From Candidatus Latescibacterota bacterium (lineage in GTDB: Bacteria; Latescibacterota; UBA2968): a stretch of 64,000 nucleotides of DNA. Under the pieces are notes generated by a model. That model was not told the origin of the DNA and searched no databases. It saw only the letters and a list, made by a program, of their open reading frames with translations. The stretch spans positions 1,088,001 to 1,152,000 of the forward strand of contig OZ242010.1 of the NCBI GenBank assembly GCA_965204745.1, in the 5' to 3' direction. A program made the position numbers and the translations under genes. Below, piece by piece: positions 32,771 through 38,290 of the stretch (position 1 is the first letter of the stretch; every line of letters begins with the position of its first letter).

Positions 32771-33604
32771 ATGATTGGGGTAGGAATTTGCGGTGTTGCC
32801 GGGCGGATGGGGCAGCGCATCTCCCATCTGACCTTAGAGGCGGAAAATTTGGATTTGGGCGGCGGAGTCGAGTTTGCAGGCCATCCCGCGATAGGGAAAG
32901 ACATCGGCGACGTCATTGGCGTGCCGCATCTCGGCGTGCAAGTGGTGGCTAGCGTGGAAGCGATGGTGCGCGAGGTCGATGTGGTGGTCGCATTTACTGC
33001 GCCGCCCGAGCCCACGGCTGTCGCCGCGGAAATCGCAGGGCGTGCTGGCGTGCCGATGGTGATTGGCACAACTGGGTTGTCTGCGGAACAAGTCGAGGCG
33101 ATGACGGACGCGCTGAAGGATGTGGCCTGCGTGTTTGCCCCCAATTTCAGCGTGGGGGTTACAGTGCTGACGCAGTTGGTGGAAGAGGCCGCGCGCATTT
33201 TGGGCGGTGATTACGACGTGGAAATCGTCGAGGCGCACCACAGGTTTAAGACAGACGCGCCTTCGGGAACGGCTTACGCGCTGGCCGAGGCCGCGGCGCG
33301 TGGCTTGGAGCGCGATTTGCAAGCCGTGGGCATTTATGGGCGCCATGGCGATACGGGCGCGAGAACGCGCGATGAAATTGGGGTCCACGCAGTGCGCGCG
33401 GGCGATATTGTCGGCGAACACACGGTTGTGTTTGGGGGCATTGGCGAGAGCGTGATGCTCGTCCACCGAGCGCAGAGCCGAGACACGTTTGCCTCTGGCG
33501 TGATTCGCGCCATTCCCTTTGCGGTTGACGCGGATCCAGGGATGTACGATATGCGCGATGTGTTGGGGTTGAGGGGAGAGATAAGAGGTAAGATACTCTC
33601 TTAA
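32771..33604 (+). CDS. dapB: 4-hydroxy-tetrahydrodipicolinate reductase; stop codon lies in the IS end
   Basis: GVAGRMG, VIGTTG, EAHHRFKTDAPSGTA, RAGDIVGEH. Confidence 0.95.
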   Translation: MIGVGICGVAGRMGQRISHLTLEAENLDLGGGVEFAGHPAIGKDIGDVIGVPHLGVQVVASVEAMVREVDVVVAFTAPPEPTAVAAEIAGRAGVPMVIGTTGLSAEQVEAMTDALKDVACVFAPNFSVGVTVLTQLVEEAARILGGDYDVEIVEAHHRFKTDAPSGTAYALAEAAARGLERDLQAVGIYGRHGDTGARTRDEIGVHAVRAGDIVGEHTVVFGGIGESVMLVHRAQSRDTFASGVIRAIPFAVDADPGMYDMRDVLGLRGEIRGKILS

Positions 33605-33607
33605 AGG

Positions 33608-34615
33608 TCAAGGGGATTGCGGGGCGATTCGATAGAATTTCTCGCCCTCAAAATCTTGGTCATGCCGCAACATGCCCCAGATTGAATGGAGCAACTTTCG
33701 CATCACCGCAACGATAGCCTGCAAAGGTTTCTTGCCGCGGGCAATGAGTTGGTCATAGAAGGCTTTGACATGGACTTCGTGTCTGATGGCCACCCAGGCA
33801 GGCATATAGAGGGCATGGCGGAGGTACTTATTCCCGGTTTTCGAGATGCGTCTTTGTGGGTTGGCGGTTCCGGATTGTTTGGGTTTGGGATCCAGGCCTG
33901 CATGTGCGACCCACTGGGGCGGTTGCATCTCCTCAGGCAAAAGGGTCAACTCGGCCAAGAGCCGCAAGGCGCTCGTTTGTGCGATGCCAGGCGTCGAGCA
34001 GAGGCGTTGGTAGGCGCGCTTGAGGGTCTCATCGTGCAAAACGAGATCGAGGGCTTGGTCTTCCAAGTATGCAATCCGGCGTTTGAGGTGTCGAATATTC
34101 ACCTGAATATCGCGTGCGATGCGCCGTGTGCTCAGGATGTGGTAGCTTTGCGCGTGGTTGCGGCTCTGTTCACTGATGATCACCTGCTTGAGTTGGTCAA
34201 TGCGTCTGGTGAGGGCTTGCAGTTGAAGCCGTTGCTCACTCGGCGCTTGCCAAGGCACAAACGGCATGCGCTCGGCATAATCCATGATCAACAACGCATC
34301 CTTCGCATCCGTCTTGGCTCGTTGCATGCGGGCTTGACCGTACTTGCTCATCGCTTTGGGATTGACGACCATGACCTTTGTGTGGCGATGCCGATGCAAG
34401 GCCAAGGCCACCCCCAAGCTGTAAAGCCCGGTCGCTTCGAGGCACACAGAGACCATGTGCCCGCCCTTGGTGAGCCACTTCAGCAACCGCTTATGGGCTT
34501 GGGGATCATTGGCAAAGGTCGCTTGCATGACAGCTTGTCCGGGTCTGGACAGGGCAACAGACAACGTGCGGGCACTGACATCAATGCCGGCGAAAGCGGG
34601 TTGAGATTTCGACAT
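33608..34615 (-). CDS. IS110 family transposase/recombinase
   Basis: AGIDVS, CLEATG, KTDAKDA (DEDD); GLDP..KQSGT, ISKTGNKYLR, AVMRKLL. Confidence 0.95.
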   Translation of the reverse strand: MSKSQPAFAGIDVSARTLSVALSRPGQAVMQATFANDPQAHKRLLKWLTKGGHMVSVCLEATGLYSLGVALALHRHRHTKVMVVNPKAMSKYGQARMQRAKTDAKDALLIMDYAERMPFVPWQAPSEQRLQLQALTRRIDQLKQVIISEQSRNHAQSYHILSTRRIARDIQVNIRHLKRRIAYLEDQALDLVLHDETLKRAYQRLCSTPGIAQTSALRLLAELTLLPEEMQPPQWVAHAGLDPKPKQSGTANPQRRISKTGNKYLRHALYMPAWVAIRHEVHVKAFYDQLIARGKKPLQAIVAVMRKLLHSIWGMLRHDQDFEGEKFYRIAPQSP

Positions 34616-34670
34616 GGGGGCCTCCTGTGATGAGGGGTTGTAAGGGGTCTGGTGTGCGCTCGAGTTCGAT

Positions 34671-34850
34671 CCCGACCATTGACGCCAAGTCTACCGGTCT
34701 TGTATATGCAGCCTCAAGGGACTTAGATACTCTTCGGCATAGACCCGGCGGTCGGGGGGCCTATCTTACCTACAAGGTCATCGCCTTCAAGAGGGGCCGG
34801 CCTTCCCCGAGCCGGGCATCAAGATGGCTTATCTCGATACGAGGGCGCAA
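34671..34850 (-). ncRNA. Predicted bridge RNA of IS110 copy 1
   Basis: Two stem-flanked internal loops containing AGAGUAUCU/CAAGA (donor guides) and AGGUAAGAUA (target guide); exact ends unknown. Confidence 0.75.
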
Positions 34851-34905
34851 CTCCTAATTAACCCTTACTTCCAAGATACAAGAGGTAAGATACTCTCTTA
34901 AAAGG

Positions 34906-35913
34906 TCAAGGGGTTTTCGGGGTGATTCGATAGAATTTTTCGCCCTCAAAATCTTGGTCATGGCGCAACATGCCCCAGATCGAATGGAGCAACTTTCGCA
35001 TCACCGCAACGATAGCCTGCAAAGGTTTCTTGCCGCGGGCGATGAGTTGGTCATAGAAGGCTTTGACATGGCCTTCGTGTCTGATGGCCACCCAGGCAGG
35101 CATATAGAGGGCATGGCGGAGGTACTTATTCCCGGTTTTCGAGATGCGTCTTTGTGGATTGGCGGTTCCGGATTGTTTGGGTTTGGGATCCAGGCCTGCA
35201 TGTGCGACCCACTGGGGCGGTTGCATCTCCTCTGGCAAAAGGGTCAACTCGGCCAAGAGCCGCAAGGCACTCGTTTGCGCGATGCCAGGCGTCGAGCAGA
35301 GGCGTTGGTAGGCACGCTTGAGGGGCTCATCGTGCAAAACGAGATCGAGGGCTTGGCTTTCCAAGTATGCAATCCGGCGTTTGAAGTGTCGAATATTCAC
35401 CTGAATATCGCGTGCGATGAGACGTGTGCTGCGGATGTGGTAGCTCTGCGCGTGGTTGCGGCTCTGTTCGCGGATGATCTCCTGCTTGAGTTGGTCAATG
35501 CGTCTGGTGAGGGCTTGCAGTTGAAGCCGTTGCTCGCTCGGCGCTTGCCAAGGCACAAAAGGCATGCGCTCGGCATAGTCGAGGATCAACAACGCATCCT
35601 TCGCATCCGTCTTCGCCCGTTGCATGCAGGCTTGGGCGTACTTGCTCATCGCTTTGGGATTGACGACCATGACCTTTGTGTGGCGATGCCGATGCAAGGC
35701 CAAGGCCACCCCCAAACTGTAAAGCCCGGTCGCTTCGAGGCACACAGAGACCATGTGCCCGCCCTTCGTGAGCCACTTCAGCAACCGCTTATGCGCTTGG
35801 GGATCATTGGCAAAGGTCGCTTGCATGACAGCTTGTCCGGGTCTGGACAGGGCAACGGACAACGTGCGGGCACTGACATCAATGCCGGCAAAAGCGGGGT
35901 GAGATTTCGACAT
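34906..35913 (-). CDS. IS110 family transposase/recombinase
   Basis: Close paralog of 33608-34615; AGGAGG RBS before MSKSHP. Confidence 0.95.
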   Translation of the reverse strand: MSKSHPAFAGIDVSARTLSVALSRPGQAVMQATFANDPQAHKRLLKWLTKGGHMVSVCLEATGLYSLGVALALHRHRHTKVMVVNPKAMSKYAQACMQRAKTDAKDALLILDYAERMPFVPWQAPSEQRLQLQALTRRIDQLKQEIIREQSRNHAQSYHIRSTRLIARDIQVNIRHFKRRIAYLESQALDLVLHDEPLKRAYQRLCSTPGIAQTSALRLLAELTLLPEEMQPPQWVAHAGLDPKPKQSGTANPQRRISKTGNKYLRHALYMPAWVAIRHEGHVKAFYDQLIARGKKPLQAIVAVMRKLLHSIWGMLRHDQDFEGEKFYRITPKTP

Positions 35914-35970
35914 GGGGGCCTCCTGTGATGAGGGGGTTGTAAGGGATCTGGTGCGCGCTCGGGGTCGCGT

Positions 35971-36150
35971 CCCGACCATTGACGCCAAGTCTACCGGTCT
36001 TGTATATGCAGCCTCAAGGGGCTTAGATACTCTTCGGCATAGACCCGGCGGTCGGGGGGCCTATCTTACCTACAAGGTCATCGCCTTCAAGAGGGGCCGG
36101 CCTTCCCCGAGCCGGGCATCAAGATGGCTTATCTCGATACGAGGGCGCAA
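35971..36150 (-). ncRNA. Predicted bridge RNA of IS110 copy 2
   Basis: Identical to copy 1 except one substitution (36021) that turns a G-U pair into G-C. Confidence 0.75.
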
Positions 36151-36267
36151 CTCCTAATTAACCCTTACTTCCAAGATACAAGAGGGGTGGTCTTCTCACG
36201 TCTTGCCTCTCACCTTTTTGCGCGATGCCCCCGTGCTCGCCCGAAGATACAAGAGGTAAGATGGAAG

Positions 36268-36327
36268 TTTAGCCACGAGCGGGATACAACTGGCGATAGC
36301 CCGTTCAAAGGCGAGCAGTGTGTGTAG
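36268..36327 (+). repeat. REP-like unit of the 14217 family
   Basis: TTTAGCCACGAGCGGGATACAACTGGCGATAGCCCGTTCAAAGGCGAGCAGTGTGT. Confidence 0.8.
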
Positions 36328-36382
36328 CCGTGCAGTGGGCGGGTTCGGATTTTGATGGATACAACAATTGGAGGAGGCAGTT

Positions 36383-38290
36383 ATGAGTGCGGATGTACAG
36401 GCGGCCTTTGATGCCGGGCAAACGCTCGCGGTGGCTGACCGGGTTTTGATCGCGCCCGAGGTGGGGACGTTGCAGGGCCGCGTGGATGATCTGTTGGGGG
36501 CCATTCAAAACAGCGGGGCGTCGGGCGAGTTGATGTGCAAGACCCTGATTCAGTTGGGCATGAATTTTGTGGGGCGCGATGCCGAGATCGTCGGCTATGG
36601 CGCGGATGAGATCGCCGCCGCGCTCGACCGCGTGTTGGGCGCGCTTGACGCGGTGGAGGGCGCGGTGGCAACGCGCGTGGTGGCTGGCTTTTTGGCGGAT
36701 ATGAAATCCGTGAACTTGTCCGATAGCCTTTCCGGGTTGCTGGCCGAACGCATTGAGATGGGTTTGGACGCGGGCAATCCCGGCAGGTCGTTTTTGACCT
36801 TGCTCAAAGCCGAGATGCGCGGCGGCGTGTATTGGCAGATGATCGGGGAGAATGTCTGTAAGTTCGGCAATGATTTTGCGCGCGGGCTGGAGTATTTGCG
36901 GCACTACGGATTTTGTCAGGTCTCGACGAATCCGGTCTTGGCGGCCAAGGCGTTTGACGAAGATCCGTCGCTGGATGACGATCTCAAGGCCGAGATCGCC
37001 AAGCGCGACGCGTGGAAAGCCGAGCCGGAAAAGCATGCCGATGAAATCGTCATGGCGGCCACGTTGATCGCGCTGTGGCCGAATCTGTCCATTTTCCGGC
37101 CCTTGGCCCTGCACACGGAGTTGAAGGACTACATGGTGAGTTTTCAACTCAACCCCAATATCGCGGACCAGGCCGATGCCAGCATTGAAGATGCGCGCAA
37201 CGCCTACGGGATTGCCGATGCGTATTTGAGGGATTACGACGAGTTGCTGGGCGCGGGCGAGATCGCGCTGGATCCCAATATCGTTTTTAAGGTGGGCGGC
37301 GGGCACGAGGCCGCGCGAAAAATTACGACCGTGCTCAACAGCGAGGGTATTGGCACGAATAACACGGTGGTCTATACCGTGGCGCAAGAGGTGCAACTGG
37401 TCATCGACGCGTTTGGGGGCAAGGCGCGGGCCGCGCAGGCGGGCAAGCCCGTGGTGCGGACTTATGAGACGAACATGGGCGGGCGTTTTGTCAGCCATTT
37501 GCGCGAGGTGGAAGCCGAGAAGTTGTTTGGCGCGTTGATAGAAGATCGCGCCGGCGAATGGCTCGCGGAACTCGCTGCGGATTTGGGCGTGGAGATGCCC
37601 GATGGCACACTGGCCGAGCGTGCGGCTCATGTCTGTTCTTACGCCCATTTGAAGTCGCTGGATCACCCGATTGTCTTAAAAGTTGCCGAGGCCGTGGGGC
37701 AGTCTTCAGAGGCGATGGTGCAACTCGAAGCGGATTTGAAGAAGGCGGGGACCCTGGTCGCTCGGCGCGTGCATTGGATTTTTTACGCGCCTGAAAATAG
37801 GCCCAAGTGGGTGGCCTACTTGTCCAAGACCTACGGGTTGACGGAAGATCGCGCACACTGGATTTTGGCGTCGATGGACGTGTTGCCCGCGTCCAAGCGC
37901 GTTCCCGACGATACGCTTCACGCCTTGGGCAAAAACATGTGCCACACGGAATTTCCCAATCACCAACGCGCGGTGCAACTCGTGTCCGAAGCACCGGATT
38001 TTGATCTGGACGAACTCCGGGGATCCATCGGCGATGAATACGATCCCGGCGTGGCGCAACGGCTTTACGAATTGCCCGATTTTCAAAAGGGCTACGACTT
38101 GACACCCGCGCTGAAGGCGTTTCTCGAGCGCGAGGTCAAAATCGATCTGAGCGGCTGGCAGACGCGGGGCATCGAACCCGGCGATTGGCCCAATTTTGGA
38201 TCGGTGCAAAAAACCAGCAACGAGTTCAAGGCGGCGTACGACGCATTTTTGATCCGCTGCGTCAACTTGGCGAAAGAAGTTGCGGGATAG
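36383..38290 (+). CDS. Large transaldolase-family protein
   Basis: VSTNPVL, VSFQLNP, NIVFKV, GTNNTVVYTVAQ, MGGR; GGAGG RBS. Confidence 0.75.
   Translation: MSADVQAAFDAGQTLAVADRVLIAPEVGTLQGRVDDLLGAIQNSGASGELMCKTLIQLGMNFVGRDAEIVGYGADEIAAALDRVLGALDAVEGAVATRVVAGFLADMKSVNLSDSLSGLLAERIEMGLDAGNPGRSFLTLLKAEMRGGVYWQMIGENVCKFGNDFARGLEYLRHYGFCQVSTNPVLAAKAFDEDPSLDDDLKAEIAKRDAWKAEPEKHADEIVMAATLIALWPNLSIFRPLALHTELKDYMVSFQLNPNIADQADASIEDARNAYGIADAYLRDYDELLGAGEIALDPNIVFKVGGGHEAARKITTVLNSEGIGTNNTVVYTVAQEVQLVIDAFGGKARAAQAGKPVVRTYETNMGGRFVSHLREVEAEKLFGALIEDRAGEWLAELAADLGVEMPDGTLAERAAHVCSYAHLKSLDHPIVLKVAEAVGQSSEAMVQLEADLKKAGTLVARRVHWIFYAPENRPKWVAYLSKTYGLTEDRAHWILASMDVLPASKRVPDDTLHALGKNMCHTEFPNHQRAVQLVSEAPDFDLDELRGSIGDEYDPGVAQRLYELPDFQKGYDLTPALKAFLEREVKIDLSGWQTRGIEPGDWPNFGSVQKTSNEFKAAYDAFLIRCVNLAKEVAG

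Follow-up and report, generated by a model that had tools for sequence, protein, structure and literature searches.

The left non-coding end of an IS110-group insertion element was analysed in a 64,000-nucleotide stretch of the Candidatus Latescibacterota bacterium genome (contig OZ242010.1, positions 1,088,001 to 1,152,000), called the window below. The window carries two adjacent IS110-family elements on its minus strand, each with a 335-aa open reading frame (ORF) and about 265 nt of non-coding DNA upstream of it. The results indicated that this left end very probably encodes a bridge RNA of the IS621 design and that the element begins at TGTATCT. At the level of the sequence the defining features of an IS110-group bridge system appear to be present, and transcription and activity are predicted. 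The covariation of guides with flanks and that within the stems both exceed chance. A first-pass annotation, made from the letters alone, had proposed that this end encodes a complete IS621-type bridge RNA, with a target loop followed by a donor loop and a CT core; the core of that interpretation holds, and the element boundary was revised.

The ends of the element were set from 57 left ends and 51 full-length copies found by a scan of the genome (5.48 Mb, one contig); the matches to the element that were listed there number 41. The two copies in the window and their main parts are as follows.

33593-34880, minus strand: IS110-group element copy 1, 1288 nt, with the CT core on both sides (34881-34882 and 33591-33592).
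34890-36180, minus strand: IS110-group element copy 2, 1291 nt, with CT cores at 36181-36182 and 34888-34889.
33608-34615, minus strand: recombinase gene of copy 1, 335 aa, Pfam PF01548 and PF02371.
34906-35913, minus strand: recombinase gene of copy 2.
34883-34889, minus strand: single host heptamer CT-TACCT between the copies, serving copy 2 as its right target and copy 1, when read as CTTACCT, as its left target.
34874-34875, minus strand: second CT, 5 nt inside the element, the dinucleotide taken as the core in the first-pass annotation.

The heptanucleotide TGTATCT (34874-34880) starts each of the genome's 57 left ends and 27 more in five other records (TGTACCT in one). Directly upstream of it the sequences diverge, from C-rich heptamers to AAATAGT and ATGCAGC. 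The relatives' left ends came from two Latescibacterota chromosomes, a contig of a Latescibacterota metagenome-assembled genome (MAG) and a gammaproteobacterial MAG, and unrelated flanks precede TGTATCT or TGTACCT in them. A relative is also present on a Gemmatimonadota MAG contig, which begins inside the left end and leaves the left terminus unreadable. The CT core was found at 57/57 left junctions in the genome and also at the right junctions listed. By this comparison TGTATCT is assigned to the element, and the left end lies 7 nt further out than first placed. The donor AGAGTAT-CT-TGGAA and the target CTTGTAT-CT-TACCT of the first-pass annotation exist as strings, but they depend on a boundary which the left ends contradict. 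The corrected donor is AGAGTAT-CT-TGTAT; the target, which lies within host heptamer arrays, has the consensus CTCCCCT-CT-TACCT. The left end comprises 265 nt before the ATG and the right end about 15 nt after the stop codon. The only terminal repeat is a 3-bp inverted repeat, AAG...CTT, which brackets the 14-nt donor; long terminal inverted repeats are absent. Membership of the IS1111 group was considered and rejected, as that group is described as having its RNA in a long right end and sub-terminal inverted repeats of 7-17 bp, in contrast to the right end of only about 15 nt and the 3-bp repeat found here.

The structure of the predicted RNA was examined in an alignment of 24 left ends, of which this genome supplied 11 and five other records 13. 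Its parts in copy 1 are given below; those of copy 2 lie 1300 nt higher, also on the minus strand.

34684-34865, minus strand: predicted bridge RNA body, with two 5' hairpins, the target-binding loop (TBL) and the donor-binding loop (DBL).
34753-34809, minus strand: TBL module, with stems CGGGG/CCCCG and GGCC/GGCC and an inner hairpin at 34774-34787.
34684-34749, minus strand: DBL module, with outer stem CGCCGGGUC/GACUUGGCG, inner stem UGCCG/CGGUA and an inner hairpin at 34710-34723.
34790-34798, minus strand: putative left target guide (LTG) GGCCCCU-CU, in the same sense as the left target and core.
34765-34771, minus strand: putative right target guide (RTG) AGGUA-AG, complement of CT-TACCT at 7/7 positions.
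34763-34764, minus strand: putative handshake bases AU after the RTG, pairing with donor positions 6-7 (AT).
34725-34733, minus strand: putative left donor guide (LDG) AGAGUAU-CU, 9/9 with the right end and core AGAGTAT-CT at 33591-33599.
34699-34705, minus strand: putative right donor guide (RDG) AUACA-AG, 7/7 complement of CT-TGTAT (core and left end, 34876-34882).
34697-34698, minus strand: putative handshake bases AC after the RDG.

The consensus fold of the 24 sequences revealed two modules, each combining a stem with a large internal loop and an inner hairpin. The 30 consensus pairs are paired in 95.7% of the cells, with changes on both sides at 14 pairs. None of 500 shuffles reached any of the five measures used, a count that overstates the result as the aligned sequences are related, and the slid controls, which pair at 30-51%, are the safer comparison. 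The fold of the single sequence, which had been suggested as a check, is in accordance with the consensus: the minimum free energy structure of element positions 15-205 contains 29/30 consensus pairs together with the two 5' hairpins. The enclosing stems and the central hairpin in each loop are present as first described. For the DBL stem the stem itself stands (8/9 possible pairs of CGCCGGGUC/GACUUGGCG belong to the tested consensus), whereas the register GUCUA/UAGAC first proposed for it is lost in variants; UGCCG/CGGUA together with GUC/GAC and a 2-nt bulge persists.

The loop segments of the first-pass annotation, AGAGUAUCU (34725-34733) and CAAGA (34698-34702) in the donor loop and GGCCCCUCU (34790-34798) and AGGUAAGAUA (34762-34771) in the target loop, were all located on the minus strand where it had placed them. 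All four are supported as guides, and two of their four DNA partners had been assigned wrongly. The right donor is TGTAT and not TGGAA, with the 3' donor-loop segment AUACA-AG matching at 7/7 positions, more than CAAGA alone. The left target is CTCCCCT (CACCCCT for copy 2 and CTTACCT for copy 1) and not CTTGTAT, and the LTG matches CCCCT-CT at 7/9 positions. The poor match of the left target guide to its flank, noted earlier as a caveat, arose because the boundary was misplaced, and it vanishes with the corrected one. By analogy with IS621, the AU of the AUA tail of AGGUAAGAUA is read as occupying the handshake guide position, where it does not pair with the target; the handshake mechanism is described in the sections of PMC11208158 that treat IS621. 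In the alignment, scored by eye, the base after the RDG core forms a Watson-Crick pair (A-T or G-C) with target position 7 in 17/24 rows, a wobble (G-T) in six and a mismatch in one. This tracking is the handshake relation as set out in that part of PMC11208158.

Across the aligned left ends the target loop varies and the donor loop is conserved, a pattern that Durrant et al. described for IS621 relatives (PMC11208160, main text). As the relatives conserve the donor as well as the donor loop, their match constitutes agreement and not covariation. The target side was compared with the insertion sites. Left flanks of the 45 main-class copies are CTCCCCT (33), TTCCCCT (4), CTTACCT (4), CACCCCT (3) and ATCCCCT (1), and the last 5 nt of the LTG with the core equal the flank in 41/45. 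The right flank is TACCT in 24/44 copies and TGCCT in 16/44. Within the same genome, the class with loops CGCCU / AAGUA occupies CTCGCCT-CT-TACTT (3/4 on each side), a single UCCCU / AGGUG copy occupies CTTCCCT-CT-CACCT, and a GUUCCCC copy follows GTTCCCC. Among the relatives, the guide AGAAA goes with the flank TTTCT (4/5), AAAUAGU with AAATAGT, GCGUU with AACGT, CCGUU with AACGG, and CUCGCCU with CTCGCCT and its A and T variants. Such covariation of guides and flanks across homologous ends had been proposed as a check, and it was evaluated by a class-level permutation in which a single consensus flank stood for each guide class, with 11 classes on the left side. The left guides matched at 48/55 positions against a shuffled mean of 30.3, with 0/100000 shuffles as high; the right guides matched at 31/35 against a mean of 18.8, with 40/100000 shuffles as high. 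The occupancy of sites genome-wide was also counted. Perfect CCCCT-CT-TACCT sites are occupied in 20/25 cases, compared to 16/81 for the G-U wobble sites CCCCT-CT-TGCCT (Fisher p 7e-8).

Several observations weigh against a bridge RNA of this design and were considered together. The first two bases of the LTG, GG, mismatch the CT of the consensus flank. The A that follows the RDG core is also able to pair with T7 of the element's own donor, and cognate handshake-donor pairing of this kind blocked recombination in IS621 as reported in PMC11208158; target and donor share T7 here, so the pairing may behave differently than in IS621. The 5' hairpin was not recovered in the consensus fold of the 24 sequences, and 5' hairpins appear only in the fold predicted for this element. 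Folding of the 260 nt gives an unremarkable energy (z -0.95), and a scan of 33000-37000 against Rfam, with E values up to 1, matched no family. The permutation used a small number of covariation classes, some of which are related to each other. One related chromosome (3-4/5) and L057 (3/5) show weaker matches to the left flank, and the RTG matches only 3/5 positions in the other related chromosome. Imperfect sites also occur, with the left target CTTACCT in four copies and the right targets CCCGT in two, TGCCC in one and TACTT in one. One copy, L011 (variant v7; C1:602782-604072), has the loops UGCCU / AAGUA and sits in CTTCCCT-CT-CACCT, a site that fits UCCCU / AGGUG guides. Finally, we infer the transcription of the RNA, its ends and its binding by the recombinase. 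Apart from these points, the right flank CCCGT of two main-class copies (1927370 and 5150718) fits an ACGGG guide that was seen only in two fragments. Sites fitting the guides of another variant suggest bridge RNAs acting in trans, or a later exchange between copies.

The recombinase and the element tips were analysed alongside the RNA. The protein matched PF01548 (DEDD_Tnp_IS110) with E values of 4.6e-23 and 1.2e-24 and PF02371 (Transposase_20) with 6.6e-20. Residues D12, E60, D103 and D106 align with D11, E60, D102 and D105 of IS621, and S248-G249 with S241-G242. The matches in the PDB are ISCro4 (E 8e-41) and IS621 (E 2e-36). Two promoter-like hexamers were located at the tips of the element.

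34873-34878, minus strand: -10-like TATCTT in the left end (left-end positions 3-8), kept in 10/11 related left ends (TACCTT in L055).
33606-33611, minus strand: -35-like TTGACC in the right end, sharing bases with the stop codon of the recombinase.

TTGA(C/A/T) stands 13-14 nt from the right tip in 12/12 right ends (13 nt in copy 1, 14 nt in copy 2). The spacer from TTGACC to TATCTT is 17 nt (18 nt in copy 2) and arises only across the corrected circle junction; a sigma-70-like site was found in none of the integrated left ends. TTGACC-N17/18-TATCTT is accordingly listed as a putative junction promoter, a candidate at the sequence level.

The two copies could lie close together because a single insertion was duplicated in tandem, by an unequal exchange for which the short CCTCTT homology served, and on paper an exchange between CCCCTCTT (left) and TACCTCTT (right) can yield both the spacer TACCT-CT-T and the left junction. 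Comparison of the copies makes this very unlikely. They show 50 aligned differences, 49 of them downstream of the first 204 nt, and each is identical to a different genome-wide subfamily, copy 1 being one of 8 identical copies and copy 2 one of 30, so these are two different elements. CTTACCT-CT-TACCT also serves as the site for three other copies. Being split by one heptamer and differing at 50 sites, the copies therefore represent two insertions into neighbouring units of an array and not a duplication. The recombinase ORF (335 aa) is intact in 50/51 full-length copies, and the identity of the copies and their intact ORFs indicate that both subfamilies spread recently. The one difference in the first 204 nt (34721/36021, U to C) changes a U-G pair of the inner hairpin in the DBL to C-G, as had been observed from the letters.

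The original boundary was also considered as an alternative in its own right, with the element starting at TGGAAG (34873), the donor being AGAGTAT-CT-TGGAA and insertion taking place into pre-existing CTTGTAT-CT-TACCT sites. The strings which it uses exist, AGGUAAGAUA is a 10/10 complement of TATCTTACCT, and 174 element-free CT-TGTAT-CT occur in the genome, so such sites exist as DNA. The remaining evidence leaves it a very small chance of being correct. CTTGTAT and TGGAA are matched by no loop segment. The bases after TGTATCT vary in the relatives (TGGAA, TGTCA, TGCGA, TTCGA, TGCCG, TTCAA), and the 3' donor-loop segment stays AUACAAG or AGACAAG despite that variation. The LTG covaries with the 5-7 nt just upstream of CT-TGTAT; in this parse those bases would be 7 nt away from the crossover. 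On the right the 51 copies are flanked by heptamers that lack TGTAT, and the parse yields neither the junction promoter nor the 3-bp inverted repeat.

The conserved left end might instead be no more than the leader or promoter region for the recombinase mRNA, acting for example in translational control and having no guide role. Its position directly upstream of the gene and the unexceptional folding energy are in favour of this explanation, which is nevertheless hardly probable. It leaves unexplained the loop bases that change along with the flanking insertion sites, the 9/9 and 7/7 matches to the element's own ends, and the unequal occupancy of A-U and of G-U sites. For IS621 and ISCro4, moreover, structures of the homologous RNAs in complex with their recombinases have been solved (PDB; PMC11208158). 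That the conservation reflects a small protein encoded by the plus-strand ORFs (34627-34857, 76 aa; 35912-36157, 81 aa), both of which do appear in the ORF list, has a probability close to nil, as the copies have single-base indels there and different ORF starts, relatives carry 1-2 nt indels inside the loops, and conservation tracks base pairs and not codons.

With the left end read as encoding a bridge RNA, a mechanism may be proposed in which several steps are carried over from IS621. Excision would join the ends as ...AGAGTAT-CT-TGTATCTTGG..., and the joined ends would create a TTGACC-N17-TATCTT promoter transcribing the left end. The long left end would thereby yield a bridge RNA of about 185 nt of the IS621 design. 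Its target module would present GGCCCCU-CU, of the same sense as the left target, and pair with the target's bottom strand; in the donor module AGAGUAU-CU and AUACA-AG would do so with the right and left ends of the element itself. The DEDD/serine recombinase would then exchange strands at the CT cores. The natural target would be the junction of two heptamer units, CTCCCCT|CTTACCT, and because this junction lies within host heptamer arrays the genome would have come to hold 51 full-length copies.

The element was compared with known systems. It resembles IS621 of Escherichia coli, as that element is described in the consulted portions of PMC11208160 and PMC11208158, in its DEDD and serine recombinase with five catalytic residues aligned, in a long left end, a short right end and a CT core, and in an RNA located in the left end in the order 5' hairpin, target loop, donor loop. 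The left guides have the same sense as the top strand of the DNA and the right guides are complementary, and the core takes part in all four pairings, as it does in IS621 (PMC11208160). Further likenesses are the handshake bases after the right guides, the hexamers of the putative junction promoter, the 3-bp inverted repeat round the donor (reported for IS110-group elements in PMC11208160), the insertion into a repeated host sequence and the tolerance of rG:dT-type wobbles. The two differ in that the recombinase here is distantly related (phmmer E 2e-36, residues 8-327), the RTG extends 5 nt beyond the core compared to 2 in IS621, and the target is a heptamer repeat junction and not a repetitive extragenic palindromic (REP) hairpin. 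Target and donor here also share T at position 7, so that the handshake base can pair with both, and the element, known from sequence alone, has a second CT 5 nt inside its left end. These differences are of degree.

The ISCro4 transposase (PDB 9t56), compared by protein sequence alone, is the best solved relative (E 8e-41, residues 7-332) and has the same two-domain layout. ISPpu10 of Pseudomonas putida (bioRxiv 10.64898/2026.03.19.712850), compared by its description in that source, is likewise an IS110 element with a bridge RNA targeting a multi-copy intergenic repeat, the host and the repeat being different. The first-pass proposal of a new programmable recombinase/RNA pair with its own specificity stands only insofar as the element is a new orthologue; the protein matches ISCro4 and IS621. 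The known mechanism is unchanged, and the element is a new orthologue of a known bridge system. The literature searched gave no record joining Latescibacter with IS110, though the supplementary tables of PMC11208160 may list the element, and the literature on IS110 or bridge RNA with repeats or scars gave nothing on this element. The IS621 donor string given in the first-pass annotation has 0 occurrences in the main text of PMC11208160.

The surroundings of the two copies were inspected. Upstream lies dapB, and downstream a gene with a transaldolase-like domain. The dapB ORF (32771-33604, plus strand; Pfam DapB_N and DapB_C) reads through the heptamers to a TAA inside the right end of the element, and its stop lies nine codons later than in relatives, whose stop directly follows ..TTGAGG. 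The host heptamers form tandem arrays of 7-nt units, CT followed by 5 nt (TACCT, TGCCT, CCCCT, CACCT, CCCGT and others), and the element inserts between units. Arrays stand near the copies at 33560-33592 and 36183-36240 and also flank all copies in the genome. Inverted pairs are frequent among them, and they adjoin other modular repeats, for example GTGGCTAAAATCCCAT, runs of the 9-nt CCTTTTGTG and runs of CTGACCA.

At the orthologous dapB/transaldolase-like locus of nine relatives the element was found in none, and the comparison gave no clean before/after pair. The spacer between the two genes is rearranged in these relatives, measuring 61-281 nt in seven loci and about 380 and 190 nt in the two closest. 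Contigs of four sequencing runs (X1, X2, X5, X10) were examined over 33200-36600; none spans the element, and neither a circle junction nor an empty site was seen in them. These contigs are short pieces that break at repeats, and their joints in the repeat region 36187-36327 are short-sided.

The distribution within the genus was also examined, and the element was present in 3/21 searched genomes (this genome, G000; G024; G028). The CT-TGTATCTT-REP motif (CTTGTATCTTNGGNC) has 93, 105 and 202 occurrences in these three and 0-2 in each of the remaining 18; the bare REP hairpin is present in 21/21. The co-occurrence of element and motif was rejected as independent evidence, as the three genomes are nearest kin; they are mutually closest at the dapB locus, with 87-92% identity compared to 75-84%. 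The co-occurrence may be a single shared event.

Element-free copies of the terminal heptanucleotide were noticed elsewhere in the genome. The 174 element-free CT-TGTAT-CT sites include an example in the window at 36245-36262 (minus strand AT-CT-TACCT-CT-TGTAT-CT-T). At 88 sites an element-free TGTATCT precedes T[TC]GGGC, with which a REP-like hairpin module begins; this module is found genus-wide but capped by TGTATCT only in the three element-bearing genomes. A site in another repeat family, ..CCCC-CT-TCCTCG, is intact 160 times and carries TGTATCT at its core 11 times by a strict pattern or 15 times by a looser one; three copies hold remnants of the element's left end. Variants v8, v9 and v11, now decayed, have guides that fit this site, and ..TTCCCC-CT-TCCTC.. 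is the exact sequence predicted from a decayed guide variant. The inner CT (TGTAT-CT-TGG) together with GTAT-CT of the right end may permit an alternative, non-scarless exit that leaves a 7-bp TGTATCT scar, a tentative proposal which is more doubtful than probable. Deletion or slippage between the 6-7-bp direct repeats (GTATCT) would give the same scar with no recombinase. The TGTATCT-capped modules were also considered as miniature inverted-repeat transposable elements and rejected: GAGTATCT occurs 184 times, of which 110 are element right ends or donor-guide copies, and every other context occurs four times or fewer. At minus-strand scan position 2459526 (C1) a TGTATCT-TGTATCT doublet is followed by about 15 of the first left-end bases joined directly to ..TAT-CT, which looks like an internal deletion between the short GTA repeats at both ends.

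Bridge recombinases are under development as programmable DNA-insertion tools, and a further natural orthologue from an uncultured lineage, the Latescibacterota, is a modest addition to them. The case also illustrates that a repeated core-like motif at the end of an element can cause its boundary to be placed a few bases off, so that a perfect guide match goes unnoticed. This one genome constitutes a natural experiment, with 57 left ends and several guide variants in matching sites, and it reveals a preference at a guide position for A-U over G-U, 80% compared to 20% of the sites being occupied. If the proposal of scars is true, the TGTATCT scars would be a fossil record of insertions guided by bridge RNA, and the heptamer arrays and the TGTATCT-capped REP-like modules might also have been shaped by the recombinase.

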